A stretch of DNA of 64,000 nucleotides from Myxococcales bacterium. Its GTDB lineage: Bacteria > Myxococcota_A > Polyangia > Polyangiales > JAFGIB01. Positions within the stretch are counted from its first letter, which is position 1, and each line of letters starts with the position of its first letter. The notes beneath the pieces were generated by a model. That model saw only the letters and a list, made by a program, of their open reading frames with translations. It did no database searches and was not told the origin of the DNA. Below are positions 24,781 to 45,969 of this stretch, piece after piece. The stretch lies in contig JASFKR010000005.1 in assembly GCA_050118535.1 (NCBI GenBank), positions 5,199-69,198 of the forward strand. The letters are read 5' to 3'. A program made the translations under genes and the position numbers.

Positions 24781-26279
24781 CAGACCCGCTCCTCCAGCGC
24801 GCGCTGCGCCTCCTCGCGGTCGTCGAAGTGCTCACGCCGCGTGCCGACGATCTGGTAGTCCTCGTGGCCCTTGCCCAGCAGCAGCACGGTGTCGTCCGGG
24901 CGGGCCGCGCGGATGGCGCGGCGGATGGCCTCGCGCCGGCCGGGGCAGACGTGGTAGCCGCGCTCGGCGTGGGACAGCGCGCTGGCCTCGAGCTCGGTGG
25001 CGCCGAGCCGGGCGATGCCCGCGACCACGTCGGCCAGGATCTTCTCGGGCGGCTCGGTGCGGGGGTTGTCGTCGGTGACGATGGCAAGGTCGGCGCCGCG
25101 CACGGCGGCCTGCCCCATCCGCGGGCGCTTGCCCCGATCCCGGTCGCCGCCGCAACCGAAGACGGCGATCAGCCGCCCGCGCGTGACCGGCCGCACGGCC
25201 GACAGCACGCGCTCCACCGCATCGGGGGTGTGGGCGTAGTCGACCAGCACCACCAACTCGTCGTGCTCGACGCGCTCCAGGCGCCCCGGCGCGCCCTTCG
25301 CTTCGGCCAGGGCCTGCAGCACGGTCGGCAGCGGGATCGACAGGGCCAGGCCGCAGCCCAGGGTCACGAGCAGGTTCTCCAGGTTGTGATCGCCGATCAG
25401 GGGGCTGCGCAGCTCGGCCTCCCCGTCGGGCGTGGCGACGCGCGCGCGGGTGCCGGTGGCGTCGACGCTCGACTCGATCACGCGCAGCTCGGCGTCCGGG
25501 CTTCCCTCGCGGGAACAGCGCAACACCCGGCCCCGCACCCGCCGCGCCAGGGACGCGCCGAGCTCGTCGTCCACGTTGATGACCGAGGTGCCGGGCGACA
25601 GCTCGAGAAACAGCCGCGACTTGGCGGCCGCGTAGTTGTCGAAGCTGCCGTGGTAGTCCAGGTGGTCCTGGGAGATGTTGGTGAAGGCGGCCACCTCGAA
25701 GCGCACGCCGTCGGCCCGGCGCATGGCGAGGGCGTGGCTGGAGACCTCGAGGACCAGGTGGGTGGCGCCCGTCTCCGCCGCCCAGCGCGACAGCCGCATC
25801 ATGTCGTCGGCCATGGGCGTGGTGTGCGTGGCCGCGCGCACCCCGCCGGGGCCGCGGAAGCTCACGGTGCCGATCACGGCGGGCGCGTGCCCGGCCCGGG
25901 CGATCACGGACTCGATCAGATAGGACACGGTGGTCTTGCCGTTGGTGCCGGTGACGCCCACGACGGCGAGCCCGGCGGTCGGGTCGTCGTAGAGACGGCG
26001 GGCAATGTCGGCCAGGGCGCGCAGGACGTCATCCGTCAGAGCCACCGGCACCCCGGCCTCCACGGGTCGATCGGAGAGCACGGCCACGGCACCGCGCGCC
26101 ACGGCGTCCGGCGCGAACTCGGCCCCGTGGCGGGTGATCCCCGGGATGGCCGCGAAGAGGTCGCCGGGCTCCACCGCACGCGAGTCGTGGCGGATGCCGT
26201 GGACGCACACCGACGCGTCACCGTCGATCCGCTCGACGAAGCCCGCCTCGAGCAGCCCCTGCAGGGTGAGCTCAGCCAC
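24780..26279 (-). CDS. murE: UDP-MurNAc-L-Ala-D-Glu--2,6-diaminopimelate ligase
   Basis: GTG at 26279. GVTGTNGKTT. The DNPR motif (VTDDNPRTE) indicates a meso-DAP-adding type. Confidence 0.9.
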
Positions 26280-28449
26280 CGGGACCTCCGGCGGCGGCGA
26301 CCTTCAGCTCGCCCGCGTTGGAGGGGCGGCCGTCCGCTTGCGCCTGTTGCGAACCGTCGCCCTGCTGCTCGTCGGGTTGCGCCTGGGGTTGCGCCTGGGT
26401 TTGCGCCTGGGTTTGCGCCTGGGTTTGCGCCTCGGGTTCGCGCACGTGGGGCGGTCGGTCGAGTTGCAGCTCGACGGCAGAGCCCACTTCCACGATGGCG
26501 TGGGCGCGCGGTCGCTGCCCGACGACCACGCCGCTGCCGTCGAGGCGCACCTGCAACTCCGCCTCCTGCACCGCGGCGATGGCGGCGCGGGCGGTGCGGC
26601 CGACCAGTTCCGGCACCAGGCGCTGGTGCTCGGCGAGATCGCCGACGAGCTCCGGCGGCTCCGGACGGGCCGCCTTTTCGGCGGCCTCTTCGGCGGCCTT
26701 TTGCCGAGCCCTGCGCGCCTTTCGTACCTTGCGACGCGCGACCGCGCCGTCGCCGCTGACCGTGCCCACCACGCCCAGGTGGCGGAGCGAAGCGTCCATC
26801 ACCCTCCGGAAGGTGGGCCCGGCGACGGTGCCGCCGTAGTGGGCGATCATGGGCTCGTCGATGACCACGGCCGTGACCAGCCGCGGCCGGCGCGCCGGGG
26901 CGTAGCCGACGAACGAGGACGTCCACTTGCCCTTGGCGTAGCCGCCGTGGACGTAGTCGGCTTTCTGGGCGGTGCCGGTCTTGCCGGCGACCAGGTGTTC
27001 GGGCAGGGCCGCCTCGGTGCCCGTCCCGCCCTCGCCGGTGACGGCGATCAGCATGTCGGAGACCTGCTGCGCGGCCCAACCCGGCACGACCTGGCGCCGC
27101 ACTCGCGGCAGGGCCTCCTCCACCACCTCTCCGCGGGCGTCCTCGACGCGCTTGACCAGGGTCGGCCGCATCAAACGACCGCGGTTGGCGAGGGCACCGG
27201 TGGCGACGGCGAGCTGGACGGCGGTGGCGCTCATGCCCTGGCCGAAGGCGACCGTGGCCGCGTCCATGTCGTACCACTTCTTGTAGTGACGCAGGATGCC
27301 GCCGGTTTCGCCGGGCAGGCGCACGCCGGTCTCTTCGCCGAAACCGAAGTCGCGCAACGTGCGATAGAGGCCGGCGCGCCCCATGGACATGCCGATCTTG
27401 GCGGTGCCGATGTTGCTCGAATAGGCGAGGATCTCGCCGGGCGTGAGCGACTCCCACTGGTGGGTGTCGTGAATCGTGTATTCGCCAACCTCCATCTCAC
27501 CGTCCTGGCAGTCGATCTGCTGACCGGGGCGTACGAAGCCGTGGGCCAGGGCGCCGGCGACGGTGAAGGGCTTGATCGTGGAGCCGGGCTCGAAACGGTC
27601 GGTGAGGGCGCGGTTGCGGCGGTGGCTGGCGTGGACGGCGCCCGGGTCATTGGGGTTGAAGGTGGGGTAGTTGGCGATGGCGAGCAGCTCGCCGGTGTTG
27701 GGGTCGTAGACCACGACCGAGCCACCCTTCGCCTCGAAGGTACGCACGGTCAGCTCCAGCTCGCGCTCGGCGATGTGCTGGATGGTCTTGTCGATGGTCA
27801 GCACCAGGTCGTCGCCCTGGGCAGCGCGGTCGTCGAGCAGTTGCTCCGAATAGACCACCACCCCGCGCCGGTCGCGAATGGCGGGCACCGGATCGGTCGA
27901 ACCGCGCAGGCGCTCCTCATAGGCGAGCTCGATGCCCTCGATCCCGCGACCGTCGATGTTGGCGAAGCCGAGCAGGTGCGCGGCGAGCTGACGGTTGGGG
28001 TAGAAGCGCCGCGACTCGCGCGTGCTCGCCACGCCGGGCAGGTCGACCGCGGCCACGGCCTTGGCCTCGCGCGGCGAGATGCGGCGCTTGACCCAGACGA
28101 AGTAGCGCCGGGATTTCAGCCGTCGCGTGAGCACCTCGGCGTCAACACCCAGCAGAGACGAAAGCTTCCGCGCCACCGCCACCGGGTCGCGACCCGACTT
28201 CTGCACGGCCCGCGGATTGGCGTAGATGCTGTCCACGTCCACGCTGACCGCGAGCTCGGCGCCGTTGCGGTCGTAGATGGTGCCGCGCTTGGGCGACAGC
28301 TCCACGTCCCGCAGGTACTGGGCCTGGGCCATTTCGCGCAGACGGTCGGCGTCGTGCACCTGGACGTCGAACGCGCGCCAGGTCACCGCCGAGGCCCCGC
28401 CGACCAGGAAGAGCGTCAGCAGCGCGATGCGCGCCTTCATCCAGCGCAT
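26272..28449 (-). CDS. ftsI: Peptidoglycan D,D-transpeptidase FtsI (PBP3) with C-terminal PASTA-like domain and Gln-rich tandem-repeat tail
   Basis: ORF 26272..28755. ATG at 28449 gives MRWMKARIALLTLFLVGG. STIKPF (SxxK), YSSNIG (SxN), KTGTA. The C-terminal LVPELVGRTARAAIAAVQEAELQVRLDGSGVVVGQRPRAHAIVEVGSAVELQL is PASTA-like, followed by EAQTQAQTQAQTQAQPQAQP. Confidence 0.87.
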   Translation of the reverse strand: MRWMKARIALLTLFLVGGASAVTWRAFDVQVHDADRLREMAQAQYLRDVELSPKRGTIYDRNGAELAVSVDVDSIYANPRAVQKSGRDPVAVARKLSSLLGVDAEVLTRRLKSRRYFVWVKRRISPREAKAVAAVDLPGVASTRESRRFYPNRQLAAHLLGFANIDGRGIEGIELAYEERLRGSTDPVPAIRDRRGVVVYSEQLLDDRAAQGDDLVLTIDKTIQHIAERELELTVRTFEAKGGSVVVYDPNTGELLAIANYPTFNPNDPGAVHASHRRNRALTDRFEPGSTIKPFTVAGALAHGFVRPGQQIDCQDGEMEVGEYTIHDTHQWESLTPGEILAYSSNIGTAKIGMSMGRAGLYRTLRDFGFGEETGVRLPGETGGILRHYKKWYDMDAATVAFGQGMSATAVQLAVATGALANRGRLMRPTLVKRVEDARGEVVEEALPRVRRQVVPGWAAQQVSDMLIAVTGEGGTGTEAALPEHLVAGKTGTAQKADYVHGGYAKGKWTSSFVGYAPARRPRLVTAVVIDEPMIAHYGGTVAGPTFRRVMDASLRHLGVVGTVSGDGAVARRKVRKARRARQKAAEEAAEKAARPEPPELVGDLAEHQRLVPELVGRTARAAIAAVQEAELQVRLDGSGVVVGQRPRAHAIVEVGSAVELQLDRPPHVREPEAQTQAQTQAQTQAQPQAQPDEQQGDGSQQAQADGRPSNAGELKVAAAGGPGG

Positions 28450-28469
28450 GCGCCGCTCGGGTAGGTTCC

Positions 28470-28778
28470 TCACTGGGCTCTCCCGGACAGCACCCGGCGC
28501 TCGCGTCCGTCGTCCATGGGGACGATCTGGGGCGACTCCGGCACGTCCATCTCGAAGGCGGTGCGCGCCACCGCCTCCACCCGATCGGGCTGGGACAGGG
28601 TCGCGGCCTCCAGCGACAGCAGGCGGCGATTTTCCAGGAGCTTGCGCTGCTCCCGACGCGCGTCGCCCACGTCGTAGCCGAGACGCACGGTCTCGAAGCG
28701 CAGGGTCAGGTGGACGATGAACGAAGCCGCCGTCGCCAGCACGGCGACCATCCACAGAGCCAGAAATCGGGCCTTCAT
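28470..28778 (-). CDS. ftsL: Cell division protein FtsL
   Basis: C-terminal 102 codons of track ORF 28470..29882. ATG at 28778 is preceded by GGAGGTGAACGC. Single TM (FLALWMVAVLATAASFIV) plus a coiled segment. Position between rsmH and ftsI. Confidence 0.65.
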   Translation of the reverse strand: MKARFLALWMVAVLATAASFIVHLTLRFETVRLGYDVGDARREQRKLLENRRLLSLEAATLSQPDRVEAVARTAFEMDVPESPQIVPMDDGRERRVLSGRAQ

Positions 28779-29680
28779 GCGTTCACCTCCGATGTGCGCG
28801 GCACGCGCCGGGCGGCGCGCAGCTTGGCGCTGCGGGCTCGCGGGTTTTCCGAGCGCTCCAGCTCGCCCGCCTGCAGTGGGCGCTTGGTGAGGGGGGAGAG
28901 ACGGTCGTCGCCGCGGAAGGCGCGCTTGACCATCCGGTCCTCGAGCGAGTGAAACGAGATGATCGCCGCGACGCCGTCGTCCTGCAGCAACTCGGGCAGC
29001 TCCGACAGCAGCTGCTCGAGCTGGTCGAGCTCGCGGTTGAGGGCGATGCGCAGGGCCTGGAAGGTGCGCGTGGCCGGGTCGACGCGCCCGCGCTTGGGCC
29101 CGAGCACGCGCACCACGGCCCGGCGCAGGTCGAGCGTGGTGCGCAGCTCCCCGGCGTCGCGGGCGCGCATGATCGAGCGTGCGACGGCGCGCGAGCGGCG
29201 CTCCTCGCCGTAGTGATAGAGGATGTCGGCCAGCTCCGCCTCGCCCACGCGATCGAGCAGCTCCGCCAGGGTCTCGCCCCCGGAGGTGTCCATGCGCATG
29301 TCGAGCGGGCCCTCGGCGGCGAAGGAAAAGCCGCGCTCGGCGTCGTCGAGCTGGGGAGAGCTGACGCCCAGGTCCGCGACCAGGCCGTCGACGCGCCCGG
29401 CGCCGTGCTGCCGCAGGATCGGACCCAGGTCGGCGTAGGCGCCGTGCACGACCACGGCCCGATCGCCGAAGGCCGCGAGTCGCGCGCGCGCCGCTTCCAC
29501 CGCGCGCGGGTCCCGGTCCACCGCCACCAGCCGGCCATCGGGCGCGCTGGCCTCCAGGATGGCCGCGGAGTGACCACCGCCGCCGGCCGTGGCGTCGGCG
29601 TAGAAGCCACCGGAGCGCGGGGCCAGGGCCTGCAGCGTCTCGCGGCACATCACCGATGCGTGATCGAAGGACTGCGTCAC
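28775..29680 (-). CDS. rsmH: 16S rRNA (cytosine1402-N4)-methyltransferase
   Basis: ORF 28775..29806. The GTG at 29680 overlaps the mraZ TGA. HASVMCRETLQAL, DATAGGGGHS, SFHSLEDR. Confidence 0.9.
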   Translation of the reverse strand: MTQSFDHASVMCRETLQALAPRSGGFYADATAGGGGHSAAILEASAPDGRLVAVDRDPRAVEAARARLAAFGDRAVVVHGAYADLGPILRQHGAGRVDGLVADLGVSSPQLDDAERGFSFAAEGPLDMRMDTSGGETLAELLDRVGEAELADILYHYGEERRSRAVARSIMRARDAGELRTTLDLRRAVVRVLGPKRGRVDPATRTFQALRIALNRELDQLEQLLSELPELLQDDGVAAIISFHSLEDRMVKRAFRGDDRLSPLTKRPLQAGELERSENPRARSAKLRAARRVPRTSEVNA

Positions 29681-30129
29681 AGGCCCAGCTCCGCCAGTCG
29701 CCGCGCCATGGCCTGGCGCTTTTCCGCGTCGTCGAGGACCGAGGTGCGCAGCTCCTCGAAGCGCGCCTTGTCCCAGAGCTCCACGTGGGTGCCCATGCCC
29801 GCCCACAGGGCCTCGCGGCTGAGGCCCGCGTGCTTGCGCAGGTTGGCCGGGATGAGCACGCGGCCGAGCTTGTCGAGGTCACACTCGACGGCCCCCGAGA
29901 CGTAGATGCGTCGCAGCATGCTCACCGACTCGTCGAACTGGGGCAGCGCGGCGAGGCGCTCCTCGAAGGCCACCCACTCCTGCAGCGGATAGGCCACCAG
30001 GCAGGGCTCGAGCCCCGTGGTGATCACGATCCGGGACTCGCCCGTGGCCCCCAGGACCTCCCGAAAACGTGAAGGCAGGGAGGTGCGGCCCTTACCATCG
30101 ATGGCGTGCTCGTAGCGTCCGCGGAACAC
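29677..30129 (-). CDS. mraZ: Transcriptional regulator MraZ
   Basis: 150 aa, GTG start. Duplicated SpoVT/AbrB-like halves with AIDGKGRTSLPSRFRE and LDKLGRVLIPANLR. Confidence 0.92.
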   Translation of the reverse strand: MFRGRYEHAIDGKGRTSLPSRFREVLGATGESRIVITTGLEPCLVAYPLQEWVAFEERLAALPQFDESVSMLRRIYVSGAVECDLDKLGRVLIPANLRKHAGLSREALWAGMGTHVELWDKARFEELRTSVLDDAEKRQAMARRLAELGL

Positions 30130-30175
30130 GGCGGCTTACCCCGTCTTTCCACGCGCCTCGACGCATTGGCACTGG

Positions 30176-30231
30176 TTACCACTTCTTACCACGGCGATCC
30201 GAAGCTACGGGGATCGCGAAGCTGGTGTCAA
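30176..30231 (-). promoter_or_regulatory. Putative dcw (mraZ) promoter TTGACA-N18-TAGCTT followed by two GTGGTAA direct repeats at exactly 10-bp spacing (MraZ-box-like)
   Basis: On the minus strand: TTGACA (30231-30226), TAGCTT (30207-30202), then GTGGTAAgaaGTGGTAA (30192-30176), 47-63 nt upstream of the mraZ GTG. MraZ proteins are known to bind short GTGG/TGGG direct repeats phased by one helical turn near their own promoter. Confidence 0.4.
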
Positions 30232-30516
30232 CTTCTTTCGCGGGCGGAAAAGTGCTGGAGATTCAATGGTTTTGGCCGCAACGGTCGGTCCGTGTGGGGT
30301 GGCATCCGACCCGGTCGGCCGGTGGTAGCCGTCACTGCGCCGGCGAAGGGGGACTCATCCGGCCACGAATGTTCAGCACTGAATGGATTATTAGCCTAAC
30401 CGACCAGCACAGGCCGCGGGGCCGAGGTGGGGCGGGGTCCGCGATTGCTCACCTTGCGGAGCGCGGCGCCGAACCTCTAAACTTTTTTTGTAATAACGGC
30501 CCGTTAGGGAGTCCGC

Positions 30517-31191
30517 GTGCAACTCGACTTCAAGGCCCGTGAGCTGACGGTCAAGCTGGTCTACTACGGCCCGGCGCTCAGCGGGAAAACCACGAATCTC
30601 CAGGCCATCCACCGACTCCTGAACCCGGAGGGGCGGGGACGGTTGATGACCCTGGAAACGCGGGACGACCGCACCCTTTTCTTCGACCTGCTGCCGTTGA
30701 GCTTCAACACGGAGTCGGGTCTGACGGTGCGCATCAAGCTCTTCACCGTCCCCGGCCAGGTCATCCACAACTCGACCCGCAAGCTGGTGCTGCAGGGGGC
30801 CGACGGCGTGGCGTTCATCGCCGACTCGCAAACCAACGAGGTCCGCGCCAACCAGGCCTCGTTCAAGGACCTGCGGCGCAACCTGCGCGAGAACGGGCTC
30901 GAGCCATCGAAGATGCCGCTGGTCATCCAGTACAACAAGCGCGACCTGCCGAACATCCGCAGCGAGGAAGAGATCAAGCGGATGGCGGCGCGCGGCAAGG
31001 AGCCCACGTTCCTGGCCACCGCGACCCACGGCACGGGTGTGGCCGAGACCTTCCTGGGGCTGGTCGAGATCACCTGGGACCGGCTGGAGGCCGAACACAG
31101 CCTCCAGGAGCGCTTCGGGCTCGACAAGAACGAGGTGGTCGGGCACCTGCGCAGCCGCTTCGGCGTGCCGGAGGGAGGAGCCGTGTCATGA
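30517..31191 (+). CDS. MglA-family Ras-like small GTPase (MglA paralogue with about 30-aa C-terminal extension)
   Basis: GTG start. KLVYYGPALSGKTTNL (P-loop), DDRTLFFD (intrinsic Arg-finger region), FTVPGQ (MglA-type G3 lacking Asp) and IQYNKRDL (G4) align closely with M. xanthus MglA as I recall it. Confidence 0.85.
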   Translation: MQLDFKARELTVKLVYYGPALSGKTTNLQAIHRLLNPEGRGRLMTLETRDDRTLFFDLLPLSFNTESGLTVRIKLFTVPGQVIHNSTRKLVLQGADGVAFIADSQTNEVRANQASFKDLRRNLRENGLEPSKMPLVIQYNKRDLPNIRSEEEIKRMAARGKEPTFLATATHGTGVAETFLGLVEITWDRLEAEHSLQERFGLDKNEVVGHLRSRFGVPEGGAVS

Positions 31192-32606
31192 GCGGGGATC
31201 CCAACACCGCGGATCTCCACCACGGCGAGATCGCCAACCTCGAGGACCTGATCGACCGCGAGTCCCTGCGGGAGGTCTGCCGGTCGTTTTTCGATCTCTT
31301 CGGGCTGTCGATCCGCGTCTTTTCGGCGCGGGGCAGCCTGCTGGCCAACGTGCACGAGGAGCGCAGCGTCTGTCGCTACGTCAACAGCCTGCCCAAGGGA
31401 CGCACCGCCTGCGCGACCACGGTGGGCGAAGTGCAGGTCCTGGTCCCCACGGAGGGCACCGTGGTGCATCCGTGCTTCACCGGCGCCGTCTATCACGTGG
31501 TGCCCATAGTCTACGACGACCGACAGCTCGGCCGCTTCGTGCTCGGCCCGTTCGTGCCCAGCGACGTGGACCAGGCGCCGCAGACCCTGCTGACCATCGA
31601 TCCGGGCGTCAAGCGCGACCGGGCGGAGGCCGCGCTGCGCGAGATGCCGCGCGTTCGGCCCGAGACCGCCGAGCGGATCGCCAGTCACCTGCGCGGGGTG
31701 CTCGACCTGATCCTCTTCTCGGGTCACCGCGCGCACCTGACCAGCGCGATGCACCTGGCCACGGTGCGAGAGAACTACCGCGAGCTCGCGGAGAAGAATG
31801 CACGACTGCAGGAGGCCTACGACAAGCTCAAGGAGCTCGATCGCCTCAAATCCAACTTCCTGGCCACCGTCAGCCACGAGCTGCGCACGCCCCTGACCTC
31901 GATCATCGGCTACTCCGAGATGCTGCAGGCCGGCATCGCCGGCGACATGACCGAGGAGCAGAACGGTTTCGTGGAGACCATCCGCACCAAGGGCGAGCTG
32001 CTGCTGAGCCTGATCACGAGCCTGCTCGATTTGAACAAGCTCGAGCGCGGCCAGCTCTCGGTGGATCCCGAACAGGTCGACCCCCGGGCGGTGCTGGCCG
32101 AGGTCAAGGAGACCTACCTGCCCGAGGCAGAGAAGAAGAAGATCACCCTGCAGGTGGAGTGCGGCGATGACGTGCCCTTCGTGCATGCCGACCCGGTGCG
32201 CCTGCGTCAGATCCTGATCAACCTGGCGGGCAACGCGATGAAGTTCACGCCCGACGGCGGTACGGTGAGCATGTCGGCGGTGGTCACCGAGATGACCATG
32301 AACGACGACGAGGACGAGGAAGAAGGCTTCGGCGCGGCCCTGATGATGGCGCCGGAGCCGGCGGTCGAGTTCAAGGTGCAGGACACGGGCATCGGCATGG
32401 CCGACGGCGAGCTCGAAAAGATCTTCGACGCCTTCTACCAGGTGGACGGAAGCTCCACGCGAGAGTTCGGTGGCGCGGGGCTGGGCCTGGCCATCGCCCG
32501 CAACCTGGTCGACGCCCACCACGGCATCCTGCGCGTGGAGAGCGAGCTGGGCAAGGGCACCAGCTTCTACGTGACCATCCCGCAGCAGGCGCCCGACGGC
32601 GAGTGA
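31188..32606 (+). CDS. Sensor histidine kinase with N-terminal PocR-type sensory domain
   Basis: ATGA overlap with the GTPase gene. PocR-like Cys pattern (SVCRYVNSLPKGRTACATT...VHPCFTGAVYHVVPIVYDDRQLGRFVLGPF). HisKA SHELRTPLTSIIGYSEML. HATPase_c N/G boxes (NLAGNAMKFT, DTGIGM, GGAGLGLAI). No obvious TM segment. Confidence 0.85.
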   Translation: MSGDPNTADLHHGEIANLEDLIDRESLREVCRSFFDLFGLSIRVFSARGSLLANVHEERSVCRYVNSLPKGRTACATTVGEVQVLVPTEGTVVHPCFTGAVYHVVPIVYDDRQLGRFVLGPFVPSDVDQAPQTLLTIDPGVKRDRAEAALREMPRVRPETAERIASHLRGVLDLILFSGHRAHLTSAMHLATVRENYRELAEKNARLQEAYDKLKELDRLKSNFLATVSHELRTPLTSIIGYSEMLQAGIAGDMTEEQNGFVETIRTKGELLLSLITSLLDLNKLERGQLSVDPEQVDPRAVLAEVKETYLPEAEKKKITLQVECGDDVPFVHADPVRLRQILINLAGNAMKFTPDGGTVSMSAVVTEMTMNDDEDEEEGFGAALMMAPEPAVEFKVQDTGIGMADGELEKIFDAFYQVDGSSTREFGGAGLGLAIARNLVDAHHGILRVESELGKGTSFYVTIPQQAPDGE

Positions 32607-32646
32607 GCCTGCTGGCAACCGCGGCTGCCGGCGGTAAGCTGGAGCC

Positions 32647-33591
32647 GTGGCTGGCGAGTTCGAACGCATCGCGGAAATCCGGCGGCGCTTGGGCGACGCG
32701 GGCGACGGGCTGCTGGTGGGCAACGGCGACGACGCGGCCGTGCTGGCCGCGAGCGCACACCCGACGGTGGTGAGCGTCGACACGGTCGTGCAGGGCGTGC
32801 ACTTCGATCTGGATCTGTGCGAGCCCGCCGACGTGGGCTACCGCGCCTTCGCCGGCGCCCTGAGCGACCTGGCCGCCATGGGAGCGAGCCCGCGCGCGGC
32901 GGTGGTGGCCCTGATCGCGCCAGCCGACATGGACGAGTCGGTGCTCTACGGCATCGCCGACGGTTTCGCCGCCGGACAGCGCGACTTCGGCGCGCCGGTG
33001 GTGGGCGGCAACCTGGCCTCGGGGGGCGAGCTGTCGGTGAGCACGACGGTGCTGGGCGAGCTTTCGGGTGAGGCCCTGCGGCGCGACGGCGTGCGGCCCG
33101 GCGATACCCTGTACGTCACGGGCGAGGTGGGAGCGGCCGCGGCCGGCCTGCAGGCGCTGCTCGCCGGCCGCCCCGAGCTGGGGCCCGAGTGCGTCGCGCG
33201 CTGGCGCCGACCCCGACCGCGGCTGCAGGTGGGGCTTTCGCTGCGTGGCCGGGCCACGGCGGCGGTGGACATCTCCGACGGGTTGCTGTCGGACCTGGGC
33301 CACCTGGCCGAGGCCTCCGGCGTGGGCTTCGAGGTGCAGGTGGAGCGGCTTCCGGTGGCGGGCTGCGCGCGGCGGGTGGCCGCGGCCCTCGGGCTCGATG
33401 CCCGGACCCTGTCGCTGACGGGCGGCGAGGACTACGAGCTGCTGTTCACGGCCGAGCAGTCGGTGGATCCGGCGCTGGGCACCCCCATCGGCCAGGCGGT
33501 GGCCGCGCCGGGGCTGCGCCTGCTCGACGCCGGGGGCCGACCGGTGCCCATGCCCGCGCGCGCCGGCTTCGACCACTTCAGGCGCGACTGA
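32647..33591 (+). CDS. thiL: Thiamine-monophosphate kinase
   Basis: GTG start. GDDAAVL, VVSVDTVVQGVHF, GGNL, DISDGLLSDLGHL, GGEDYELLFT. Confidence 0.85.
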   Translation: MAGEFERIAEIRRRLGDAGDGLLVGNGDDAAVLAASAHPTVVSVDTVVQGVHFDLDLCEPADVGYRAFAGALSDLAAMGASPRAAVVALIAPADMDESVLYGIADGFAAGQRDFGAPVVGGNLASGGELSVSTTVLGELSGEALRRDGVRPGDTLYVTGEVGAAAAGLQALLAGRPELGPECVARWRRPRPRLQVGLSLRGRATAAVDISDGLLSDLGHLAEASGVGFEVQVERLPVAGCARRVAAALGLDARTLSLTGGEDYELLFTAEQSVDPALGTPIGQAVAAPGLRLLDAGGRPVPMPARAGFDHFRRD

Positions 33592-33639
33592 GCACTTTCG
33601 CCGCGTCGCCTGCTGTCCTATGTATCTGCGAGAGGACCG

Positions 33640-34397
33640 GTGGACCCGAAATCGCTGAAATCACTGCTCGAGCGCGTCGCTCGCGGCGAGACCGACACGG
33701 ACGCGGCCCTTACGGAGCTGCGCGACCTGCCCTTCAAGGACCTGGGCTACGCGTCGGTGGATAACCACCGGGCCCTGCGCGTGGGCATCCCCGAGGTGGT
33801 CTTCGGGGCCGGCAAGACGCTGGCGCAGCTCGAGGGCATCGTGGGAGAGATCGACGGGCGCGGCCAGGACGTGCTGATTACGCGCCTGGGCGAGCCCGAG
33901 GGGCGCGCCCTGGAGGAGCGCTTCGAGGGACTGCGCTTCGACCCGGTCTCGCGCACGGCGACGCTCACCCGCAAGCCGCCACGGATCCGCGGGAGCGGCA
34001 CCATCGCCGTGGTCACCGGCGGCACCAGCGACATCCCCGTGGCCGAGGAGGCGGCGGTCACGGCCGCGATCCTGGGCAACGAGGTGAGCCGCCTGTACGA
34101 CGTGGGGGTCGCCGGCGTGCACCGGCTGCTGAGCCGCCGGGCCGTGCTCGACGCGGCGAGCGTGGTGATCGTGGTGGCCGGCATGGAGGGCGCGCTCGCC
34201 AGCGTGGTGGGCGGTTTGGTGGACAAGCCGGTGATCGCCGTGCCCACCTCGGTCGGCTACGGCGCGAGCCTGGGTGGGATCGCGGCGCTGCTGACCATGC
34301 TCAACAGCTGCGCGTCGGGCGTGACGGTGGTCAACATCGACAACGGCTTCGGGGCTGCCTACGCGGCGACGCTGATCAACCGGATGGGGATGGACTG

Positions 34398-34398
<1 letters not shown>
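33640..34398 (+). CDS. larB: Nickel-pincer cofactor biosynthesis protein LarB (PurE-like NaAD carboxylase/hydrolase)
   Basis: GTG start. N-terminal DxxRxxRxG-type segment VDNHRALRVGIPEVVFG. PurE-like VVTGGTSDIPVAEEA and VVAGMEGALASVVGG. Confidence 0.8.
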
Positions 34399-35708
<1,310 letters not shown>

Positions 35709-35789
35709 GCGGCTTCGCTCTGCTCGCAGCCACCCCTGTCCTGCCCTCCCCTCGCTTGCAGCCCGGCCCGGCCCGGCTAACATGGGTCA

Positions 35790-36449
35790 ATGACCGGGGG
35801 TGAGCGCGTCGAACGCGTCGGCCTGATCGGCGATGTGCACACCGAGCGAGACAGACTCGCGTTGGCGCTGCGCTTTTTGAGCACCCAGAACGTCGATCGC
35901 CTCCTGTGCACCGGCGATCTGGCCGACGGCCCGGGAGACGGGGCGGACGTGGACGAGTGCGTCGCGCTGCTCGAGTCCCACGATGTGCTGACCGTCAGCG
36001 GCAACCATGACCGCTGGATCCGCGACCACGAGATGCGCGATCTGTCGGACGCCACCGAGCCCGACGAGATCGAACCCGAGACGGGCGACTACCTGGACCG
36101 GCTGCCCCAGACCATCGAGCTGTCGACCCCGGCGGGCCCGGCCTTGCTGTGCCACGGCCTCGGCAACGACGACATGGCCCTGGTGCAGCCCCACGACCAC
36201 GGCCACGCGCTCAACGACAACGCGCGATTGCAGGAGCTGCTGCGGGAGGGGCGCTACAGGTACGTGCTCAACGGCCACAGCCACCGGCCGATGGTGCGCA
36301 CCATCGACGGGCTCACCATCGTCAACGCCGGCACGCTGTACACGGGCCAGCGGCCCTGCGTGCTGGTCGTCGACTTCGGCGAAAAGCGGGTGACCTTCTT
36401 CGACATGGAAAGCCCGGAGCCCATCGAGAGCCGCACCGAGCCACTCTAG
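35790..36449 (+). CDS. Calcineurin-like metallophosphoesterase (YfcE/MJ0936-like)
   Basis: GLIGDVHTE, CTGDLADG, VSGNHD, NGHSH metal-ligand motifs in canonical order. Confidence 0.8.
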   Translation: MTGGERVERVGLIGDVHTERDRLALALRFLSTQNVDRLLCTGDLADGPGDGADVDECVALLESHDVLTVSGNHDRWIRDHEMRDLSDATEPDEIEPETGDYLDRLPQTIELSTPAGPALLCHGLGNDDMALVQPHDHGHALNDNARLQELLREGRYRYVLNGHSHRPMVRTIDGLTIVNAGTLYTGQRPCVLVVDFGEKRVTFFDMESPEPIESRTEPL

Positions 36450-36481
36450 CGCGCATCGTGGCTGGCCACGATGCGCGCTAG
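36446..36481. terminator. Perfect 17-bp inverted repeat (CTAGCGCGCATCGTGGC tg GCCACGATGCGCGCTAG); bidirectional terminator between convergent genes
   Basis: Read directly from the sequence. It includes the TAG stop of the phosphoesterase gene and lies 38 nt from the stop of the giant minus-strand ORF. A second small hairpin GCGCCtttGGCGC follows. Confidence 0.55.
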
Positions 36482-36519
36482 CTCGCGCCTTTGGCGCTCG
36501 AACGGCCTACGGCCAGAGC

Positions 36520-45969
<9,450 letters not shown>

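Follow-up and report, generated by a model that had tools for sequence, protein, structure and literature searches.

The window analysed here, a stretch of 64 kb (64,000 nucleotides, nt) from a Myxococcales bacterium of the Polyangia (contig JASFKR010000005.1), encodes an MglA-family small GTPase directly followed by a soluble histidine kinase with a PocR sensor domain, and this GTPase–kinase pair has been kept together throughout Polyangia and in more distant relatives. That the two genes constitute a functional module is very probable, and the sequences make it rather likely that the two proteins contact each other directly. The best explanation, offered with some reserve, is a dedicated signalling module in which a GTPase of the SofG type and its PocR kinase, made from a coupled transcript, most likely bind each other; that control runs from the GTPase to the kinase is a more tentative proposal. 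What is said below of partner genes in the source genome covers the 64 kb.

Conservation of the gene order provides the strongest reason for regarding the two genes as one system. One genome per GTDB species was scanned with patterns taken from aligned members of the GTPase subfamily; the scan gave 243 relatives, and the best 80 of these, all from Polyangia metagenome-assembled genomes (MAGs) assigned to Polyangiales, Sandaracinaceae or Polyangiaceae and with 61–88% identity, provide the locus counts; all relatives compared are MAGs or metagenome contigs. A PocR kinase gene directly follows the GTPase gene in 80 of 80 loci, and stop and start overlap in 75 of them (by 4 nt, as ATGA or GTGA, in 64, by 8 nt in five, by 1 nt in five and by 14 nt in one), a gap separating the genes in only five. 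The overlap is retained despite divergence of the GTPase C-termini. At one locus, L008, the neighbours are entirely different on both sides with the overlapping pair still present, and the surroundings are also different for the same pair at L090, L093, L094 and the place found for P0248. The pair is also present in five more distant relatives that were looked at. The four distant GTPases with neighbours on record (P0250, P0247, P0248 and P0510; 48–52% identity) are each followed by a PocR kinase, and upstream of these pairs is a gene for an M50 peptidase, a DinG-like helicase or Lon, contexts unlike that of the window. The P0248 locus has the order divergent GNAT gene, 237-aa GTPase, 500-aa PocR kinase and thiL-like gene. 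Since the adjacency holds in all 80 loci and the four distant relatives while the flanks change, the pair is a unit and no local accident, and the original prediction, for which lack of conserved adjacency had been set beforehand as grounds for refutation, came through that check. A thiL gene (thiamine-phosphate kinase) comes immediately behind the kinase gene, with no change of strand, in 61 of the 80 loci and in all four distant relatives, and because of this retention GTPase, kinase and thiL can be viewed as an old three-gene cluster; thiL is probably co-transcribed with the pair, and no evidence was found of it taking part in signalling.

The GTPase has a GPALSGKT P-loop, a switch-I RTLFFD with the intrinsic Arg, R52, a TVPGQ G3 in which Thr, T77, replaces the Asp of Ras and is followed by the catalytic Gln, Q81, and an NKRD G4 of the canonical NKxD type (positions of these and other features are in Table 1). 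Its best solved relatives are MglA of Myxococcus xanthus (E = 5e-52) and of Thermus thermophilus (2e-50), with Arf at only about 1e-4, and this far greater similarity to MglA than to Arf, together with the Thr in G3, the Gln, the Arg and the NKxD, places it, as had been claimed from the motifs, in the MglA family, and there in the Group 1 type. Identity to M. xanthus MglA is about 50% over the aligned stretch, and source annotations give MglA or gliding motility protein. The G1–G4 motifs, Arg finger and catalytic Gln are invariant among the orthologues, which are 219–250 aa long, and among the fusion proteins described below. The window protein has a C-terminal extension that the 195-aa MglA lacks, and in an AlphaFold2 (AF2) model of the GTPase (pLDDT, the predicted local distance difference test score, 82) its approximately 30 residues are predicted to be helical.

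A neighbour-joining (NJ) tree of 322 G domains was made from 81 paired proteins, 150 representatives of 50%-identity clusters, the fusions and M. xanthus MglA, the sample having been picked by similarity to the query GTPase. The paired GTPases and 19 other proteins, mostly of about 220–250 aa, form one clade without M. xanthus MglA (bootstrap 95/100, run on a 93-sequence subsample of the alignment), and the mean identity of the paired clade to M. xanthus MglA is 44%. Members of the clade are set apart from MglA by the extension of about 30 residues. The phylogenetic placement that had been proposed as a check puts the GTPase apart from canonical MglA, in a clade that is probably the SofG group. 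A C-terminal adaptor motif common to paired GTPases and fusions was also considered, and was dropped when a hidden Markov model (HMM) of the extension matched 0 of 93 fusions and 7 of 19 members of the wider clade at E <= 0.1. As a separate matter, about 125 of the 150 best representatives of the 50% clusters (P0259–P0390) are proteins of 260–660 aa with an N-terminal MglA-like G domain and a long C-terminal part. No proteins in the sample are closer to M. xanthus MglA, to which their identity reaches 65%; their long tails gave no kinase match in BLAST comparison with the window kinase, and a Pfam scan of seven of them gave one Extensin-like match, below cut-off.

The kinase is as originally described, a soluble PocR-HisKA-HATPase_c protein with Cys residues in its PocR domain. 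PocR and the two kinase domains match their Pfam models well (Table 1), the H, N, G1, F and G2 boxes are all intact with H230 as phospho-acceptor, and the kinase is of the HisKA type. No transmembrane segment is apparent (the maximum Kyte-Doolittle 19-residue mean is 1.25), the Pfam scan revealed no HAMP domain, and a signalling helix lies between the PocR domain and HisKA. In an AF2 model of kinase residues 1–205 (pLDDT 89) an alpha/beta domain is succeeded by a long helix that leads into the dimerization and histidine phosphotransfer (DHp) domain. A Foldseek search of the PDB with the PocR model has GAF domains on top (CodY, E = 8e-5), and with GAF domains ranking first the PocR domain of the kinase can be taken as a GAF-like sensor, of the same fold class as the GAF of the fusions. 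M. xanthus MglB appears in the same list from rank 30 (E about 8e-3; template modelling (TM) score 0.29 for the query, 0.45 for the target). A reading of the kinase N-domain as a disguised Roadblock domain was rejected, as MglB comes far below the GAF matches and merely shares the alpha/beta fold class. Of 49 aligned kinases at least 90% have retained four Cys residues of PocR (C31, C62, C75 and C96), which suggests a metal, Fe-S or redox site.

Nature has also joined the two activities in single chains. P0255, of 665 aa, consists of an MglA-like G domain, a weak PocR-like region that has lost the four Cys, HisKA and HATPase_c; no start or stop codon is present at the junction, and the protein groups with the paired clade. 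Searching with P0255 brought out at least 90 clusters (P0393–P0509; loci L095–L097) of proteins of about 720 aa in which a G domain, GAF, HisKA and HATPase_c are fused, and these are labelled Acidobacteriota where the source names them, which it does for few. In the tree their G domains, which keep all catalytic residues, are placed nearest to the paired clade. One of them, P0475, is on six contigs, one of 3.2 Mb, and so the GAF-type architecture is no assembly error; in its neighbourhood, the one fusion neighbourhood looked at, no Roadblock or receiver gene adjoins. Variants have no sensor domain (P0397), an added receiver (P0494), a middle region without assignment, or GAF plus PAS (P0352, from an earlier search). 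Three further candidates, P0392, P0391 and P0465, were discarded, their sequences suggesting ordinary pairs distorted by a frameshift, deletion or read-through artefact; overlapping gene junctions of this kind are a trap for automated counts of domain architecture. The JGI name for the GAF-type fusions is "histidine kinase / SRP receptor subunit beta". No description of the G domain-GAF-kinase fusion family was found in open-access full text, though one may exist elsewhere. That MglA-like G domains occur in nature fused to histidine kinases makes direct wiring of the switch to the kinase a reasonable inference.

The most instructive comparison is with SofG (MXAN_6703) of M. xanthus, an orphan Group 1 MglA-family GTPase of 239 aa in an organism whose MglA has 195 aa. 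Like the window GTPase, SofG belongs to the MglA family, has the intrinsic Arg finger, is longer than MglA and has no adjacent mglB. According to the supplementary tables of two M. xanthus transcriptome papers sofG is followed on the same strand by MXAN_6702, for a histidine kinase of 502 aa. Next comes MXAN_6701, whose class among the clusters of orthologous groups (COG), coenzyme metabolism, would fit thiL, and on the other side of sofG is MXAN_6704, a GNAT gene. The P0248 locus likewise has a divergent GNAT gene upstream. Published tables for the delta-proteobacteria list MglA proteins of 195–196 aa coupled to MglB and, in addition, orphan Group 1 proteins of 220–242 aa such as Hoch_2556, sce0386 and SofG, with the canonical pair present alongside in Sorangium, Haliangium and Myxococcus. 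The window GTPase, at 224 aa longer than MglA, is an orphan within the 64 kb of its genome that can be seen. From the locus resemblance (the MXAN_6702 kinase and the GNAT gene) it is likely to be the Polyangia counterpart of SofG. One difference is that the window locus is beside the dcw cluster and the sofG locus is not. SofG interacts with the bactofilin BacP and is involved in the BacP-dependent positioning of PilB and PilT at the poles (PMC4085708). An earlier account had MglB, encoded elsewhere, as not being the GTPase-activating protein (GAP) for SofG, and later papers report that in M. xanthus it is. With MglB reported to serve SofG in trans, the kinase need not be a GAP. No description of SofG as paired with the neighbouring MXAN_6702 kinase was found in open-access full text.

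A coupled mglB within four genes accompanies 390 of 449 MglA-family members and so is typical and not obligatory. As the original prediction had it, neither a Roadblock/MglB gene nor a response regulator gene adjacent to that of the kinase was found in the window: Pfam gave no Robl_LC7 and no Response_reg in the 27 window genes scanned, and the exact M. xanthus MglB sequence, checked against PDB 6h5b, had no phmmer match at E <= 10 among six-frame open reading frames (ORFs) of the window. The same query brought up no Roadblock gene in the window together with 94 related loci, comprising 1.5 Mb of flanking sequence. A protein with a receiver (REC) domain is encoded upstream of the GTPase in only 3 of the 80 loci, and a conserved cognate response regulator near the pair was rejected, as an iterated REC search matched only five loci. 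In these three Polyangia loci (L025 4682-5659, L030 2160-3137 and L057 1721-2680), which lack mraZ upstream, the receiver protein is of about 320 aa and its gene, in the same orientation as that of the GTPase, is approximately 550 nt upstream; this protein is possibly the cognate response regulator in that sub-lineage.

It had been supposed that a module of this type was without characterised precedent, and this was an overstatement in light of the conservons and the Rup GTPases (PMC4316618, PMC12236503). The conservons (AGPS; CvnA kinase, CvnB Roadblock protein, CvnC and CvnD GTPase) are the studied actinobacterial system and are restricted to Actinomycetota (PMC4316618, PMC12236503). They also combine an MglA-family GTPase with a histidine-kinase-like protein without a response regulator, and the GTPase has been proposed as output. 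However, a conservon has four genes, including those for the Roadblock protein and CvnC, a membrane HAMP kinase and a Group 2 GTPase without canonical NKxD or Arg finger, whereas the window module consists of two genes, has a kinase that is soluble and carries PocR and a G domain of Group 1 type with both NKRD and R52, and belongs to Myxococcota hosts; no Roadblock gene was found, the kinase has no HAMP domain, and thiL, larB and larC follow the kinase gene. Group 1 Rup GTPases, small members of the Ras superfamily, have a conserved neighbour in a signalling output protein, in some cases a histidine kinase (Wuichet and Sogaard-Andersen 2015), but Rup is a different GTPase family without the catalytic Gln, in a four-gene cluster with OmpA-like and coiled-coil proteins, and the kinase N-terminus there has a conserved Gln. 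The MglA/MglB module of M. xanthus and T. thermophilus has the same G-domain family and catalytic design (Thr in G3, Arg and Gln), in contrast to which the window GTPase is without a Roadblock gene in the window and the 94 loci, is in a separate clade, has the C-terminal extension and is always paired with a kinase. The GAF-type fusions resemble the pair in their MglA-like G domain with all catalytic residues, their cytoplasmic kinase and the fold class of their GAF-like sensor, and differ in being a single polypeptide, in having GAF and not PocR, in belonging to another phylum where labelled, and in having no detectable extension motif. The two-gene GTPase/PocR-kinase architecture and the fusion family appear to be undescribed: open-access full text on PocR with GTPase, and on MglA-like with kinase fusion, yielded no account of the pairing, though one may exist elsewhere.

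In the explanation preferred here the GTPase and kinase would be made together from one translationally coupled transcript, and the GTPase would act as an input domain in trans, its GTP- or GDP-bound state being read by the PocR domain, the signalling helix or both, and so setting autophosphorylation of the kinase at H230. Through its four conserved Cys, PocR may contribute a further input, from a small molecule, a metal or redox state. From the kinase the phosphoryl group would pass to a response regulator encoded elsewhere. Judged by SofG of M. xanthus, the pathway probably serves cell polarity and type IV pili, and an MglB whose gene is elsewhere may help GTP hydrolysis. No catalytic residue is missing from either protein, and it is the N-terminal, input position of the G domain in the fusions, combined with the completeness of the kinase, that favours the GTPase as input. 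Several points weigh against this explanation. The direction of control depends only on domain order in fusions, and the PocR-type fusion P0255 is a single sequence from one MAG, the three further apparent fusions or read-throughs looking artefactual. In the GAF-type fusions no match to the C-terminal extension of the paired GTPases was detected (the 0 of 93 above). The partners of SofG named in the open-access literature are BacP, PilB/PilT and MglB, with no kinase among them, and the retention of thiL next to the pair means that gene order alone is no proof of contact.

The alternative that has most to be said for it, though it is unlikely, puts the kinase upstream and makes the GTPase the output: either the PocR/GAF-like N-domain or the kinase as a whole would act as a sensor-controlled GAP, an exchange factor for guanine nucleotides (GEF) or a scaffold, or would phosphorylate the GTPase, which would act on polarity and pilus proteins as SofG does, with a conservon-like logic that needs no response regulator. 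The lack of a conserved response regulator nearby (REC upstream in the three loci mentioned) and of any Roadblock gene in the 1.5 Mb would suit such an arrangement, as would the slowness of MglA-type GTP hydrolysis when no partner brings the intrinsic Arg and Gln into new positions (PMC4316618) and the conservon GTPase having been proposed as output. The weak resemblance of the PocR model to M. xanthus MglB has been counted in its favour too, but it is far below the GAF matches and typical of the alpha/beta fold class. A pure GAP or GEF has no need of the autophosphorylation and phosphotransfer residues, all of which the kinase retains; an N-terminal tether of the G domain in the fusions fits an input better than a diffusible output; and MglB itself is reported as the GAP for SofG. 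The proposal of direct wiring draws support from the conserved pairing and the natural fusions, while the idea of the kinase N-domain as a necessary GAP is weakened by the MglB reports.

It is improbable that co-expression is all that unites the pair, i.e. that GTPase and kinase belong to a shared process, or to an old operon with thiL, without touching each other, the GTPase cycling with MglB and further partners encoded elsewhere. Retention of a housekeeping gene, thiL, illustrates that operon order can last without interaction, and no kinase is among the reported SofG partners, but the adjacency persists in every one of the 80 loci and in distant relatives while all other neighbours change, the overlap is kept in 75 loci despite divergent C-termini, and on repeated, independent occasions a G domain has been fused to a sensor kinase. 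Very improbable indeed is the GTPase being the canonical MglA polarity switch with mglB relocated and the kinase an unrelated neighbour. The annotations as MglA or gliding motility protein and the identity of about 50% over the aligned stretch point that way; however, M. xanthus MglA is outside the clade (bootstrap 95, mean identity 44%), the window GTPase has the C-terminal extension of about 30 aa, Sorangium and Haliangium have a separate MglA of 195–196 aa coupled to MglB together with orphans of 220–242 aa, and the kinase neighbour is invariant.

The overlap of the GTPase TGA with the kinase ATG is exactly where it had been predicted (Table 1). GC content at third codon positions (GC3) is 0.92 for the GTPase and kinase ORFs alike, and in a window of 71% GC both therefore look like real genes. 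Within the 3′ end of the GTPase gene is a Shine-Dalgarno (SD)-like run, and among orthologous loci an SD-like tetramer is present at −20 to −5 of the kinase start in 51 of 76, compared to 15% in random 16-mers. Alignment of the mraZ–GTPase intergenic regions of seven loci has CTTG.G and TAAACT-like blocks that are kept, from which a putative promoter for the operon can be proposed; a scan for consensus sigma-70 sequences found no promoter. Closer to mraZ in the same intergenic region the blocks GGCAC..CCACTTCTTACCAC and GTGTCAACTTCTT are conserved in seven loci upstream of mraZ, and their sequence may be that of MraZ operator repeats or the dcw promoter. Known RNAs in the leader and operon, riboswitches included (a thiamine pyrophosphate (TPP) riboswitch was considered owing to thiL), were ruled out, as an Rfam scan of 29500-36700 gave no match at E <= 1.

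Table 1. Positions in the window of the GTPase–kinase pair, its sequence motifs and other features mentioned in the text
Feature	Position (nt)	Strand	Basis or remark
MglA-family (probably SofG-type) small GTPase gene, 224 aa, GTG start	30517..31191	+	ORF, motifs, MglA matches
P-loop GPALSGKT, aa 18-25	30568..30591	+	
Switch-I RTLFFD, aa 52-57	30670..30687	+	R52
G3 TVPGQ, aa 77-81	30745..30759	+	T77, Q81
G4 NKRD, aa 140-143	30934..30945	+	
C-terminal extension, aa 191-224	31087..31188	+	
Soluble sensor histidine kinase gene, PocR-HisKA-HATPase_c, 472 aa	31188..32606	+	ORF, Pfam, intact boxes
PocR (PF10114), aa 20-179	31245..31724	+	90.2 bits, cut-off 23.9; model positions 1-161 of 162
C31, C62, C75, C96	within 31278..31475	+	
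HisKA, aa 221-288		+	69 bits
H box SHELRTP	31872..31904	+	H230
HATPase_c, aa 335-467		+	89.5 bits
N box NLAGNAMKF	32220..32249	+	
G1 box DTGIGM	32382..32399	+	
F box FDAFYQVD	32424..32447	+	
G2 box GGAGLGL	32469..32498	+	
ATGA stop/start overlap (translational coupling)	31188..31191	+	ATG 31188-31190 over TGA 31189-31191, tcATGAgc
SD-like run GGAGGGAGGA in GTPase 3′ end	31170..31179	+	9-18 nt ahead of kinase ATG
Ribosome-binding region gttagggagt ahead of GTPase GTG	30503..30512	+	TTAGGAG-like block kept before start in related loci
Putative operon promoter TTGCGG, 18-nt spacer, TAAACT	30454..30483	+	Conservation only
Conserved blocks on mraZ side of intergenic region	30165..30240		Alignment, 7 loci
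thiL (thiamine-phosphate kinase), third gene of cluster	32647..33591	+	TIGR01379, 264.9 bits, cut-off 184
mraZ, first gene of divergent dcw cluster (context only)	29677..30129	−	Pfam MraZ
larB	33640..34398	+	NCBIfam equivalog
larC	34398..35708	+	NCBIfam equivalog
ftsI/penicillin-binding protein ORF	26272..28755	−	Longest ORF
ORF of 3149 aa	36520..45969	−	GC3 0.93
Ser/Thr protein kinase gene, 1648 aa	46198..51144	−	

Of the neighbours, thiL is at 8050-9030 in L090, 7236-8363 in L093 and 7119-8036 in L094. The original prediction had left room for the proximity of the dcw promoter being meaningful, but this linkage was rejected as part of the module, being lineage-specific synteny: a divergent mraZ is within 1.5 kb in 46 of the 80 loci, is missing in 27 with enough upstream sequence, and occurs in none of the distant relatives. 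After thiL in the window come larB and larC, listed as a pair of ORFs for nickel-pincer cofactor synthesis and present only in the closest relatives of the window; the LarC N-terminus is rich in His and Asp (HGHGHARAHDHDHDHDHDHE), and neither larA nor larE was seen among the window genes scanned. The longest ORF for the ftsI penicillin-binding protein (PBP) has a low-complexity tail (AQTQAQTQAQTQAQPQAQP) at its end; its listed start is probably too far upstream, and the PBPs of related loci are of about 700 aa with a PASTA domain. The very long 3149-aa ORF has counterparts in L001 and L006 (3088 and 4079 aa) with faint or weak matches to MopE-like copper-binding sequences and, in L006, also to FGE-sulfatase. 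The 1648-aa protein combines a Ser/Thr protein kinase with GAF, a sigma-54 activator AAA+ domain and HTH_8, and L003 and L005 have a similar gene in the corresponding position.

Cell signalling has two main types of switch, small Ras-like GTPases and two-component kinases, and a direct link between GTPase and kinase in bacteria is documented only for the poorly understood conservons of actinobacteria. The two-gene form considered here is in at least 243 species genomes, as found with the subfamily-specific patterns, and the one-protein form is in many further MAGs; pair and fusions together offer a simpler system for communication between G protein and histidine kinase. If the window GTPase is the counterpart of SofG, then MXAN_6702 becomes a concrete candidate partner for SofG, in a genetically tractable organism. 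A bolder possibility, and a doubtful one, is a G-protein-gated two-component system without a Roadblock protein, in which the state of the GTPase would switch the kinase via PocR, and PocR would double as a GAP- or GEF-like platform that integrates a Cys-dependent redox, metal or ligand signal. Were that so, the missing regulatory partner of SofG would be identified, and with the same logic hard-wired in the G domain-GAF-kinase fusions that are labelled Acidobacteriota, a widespread and undescribed class of bacterial signalling device would come into view.

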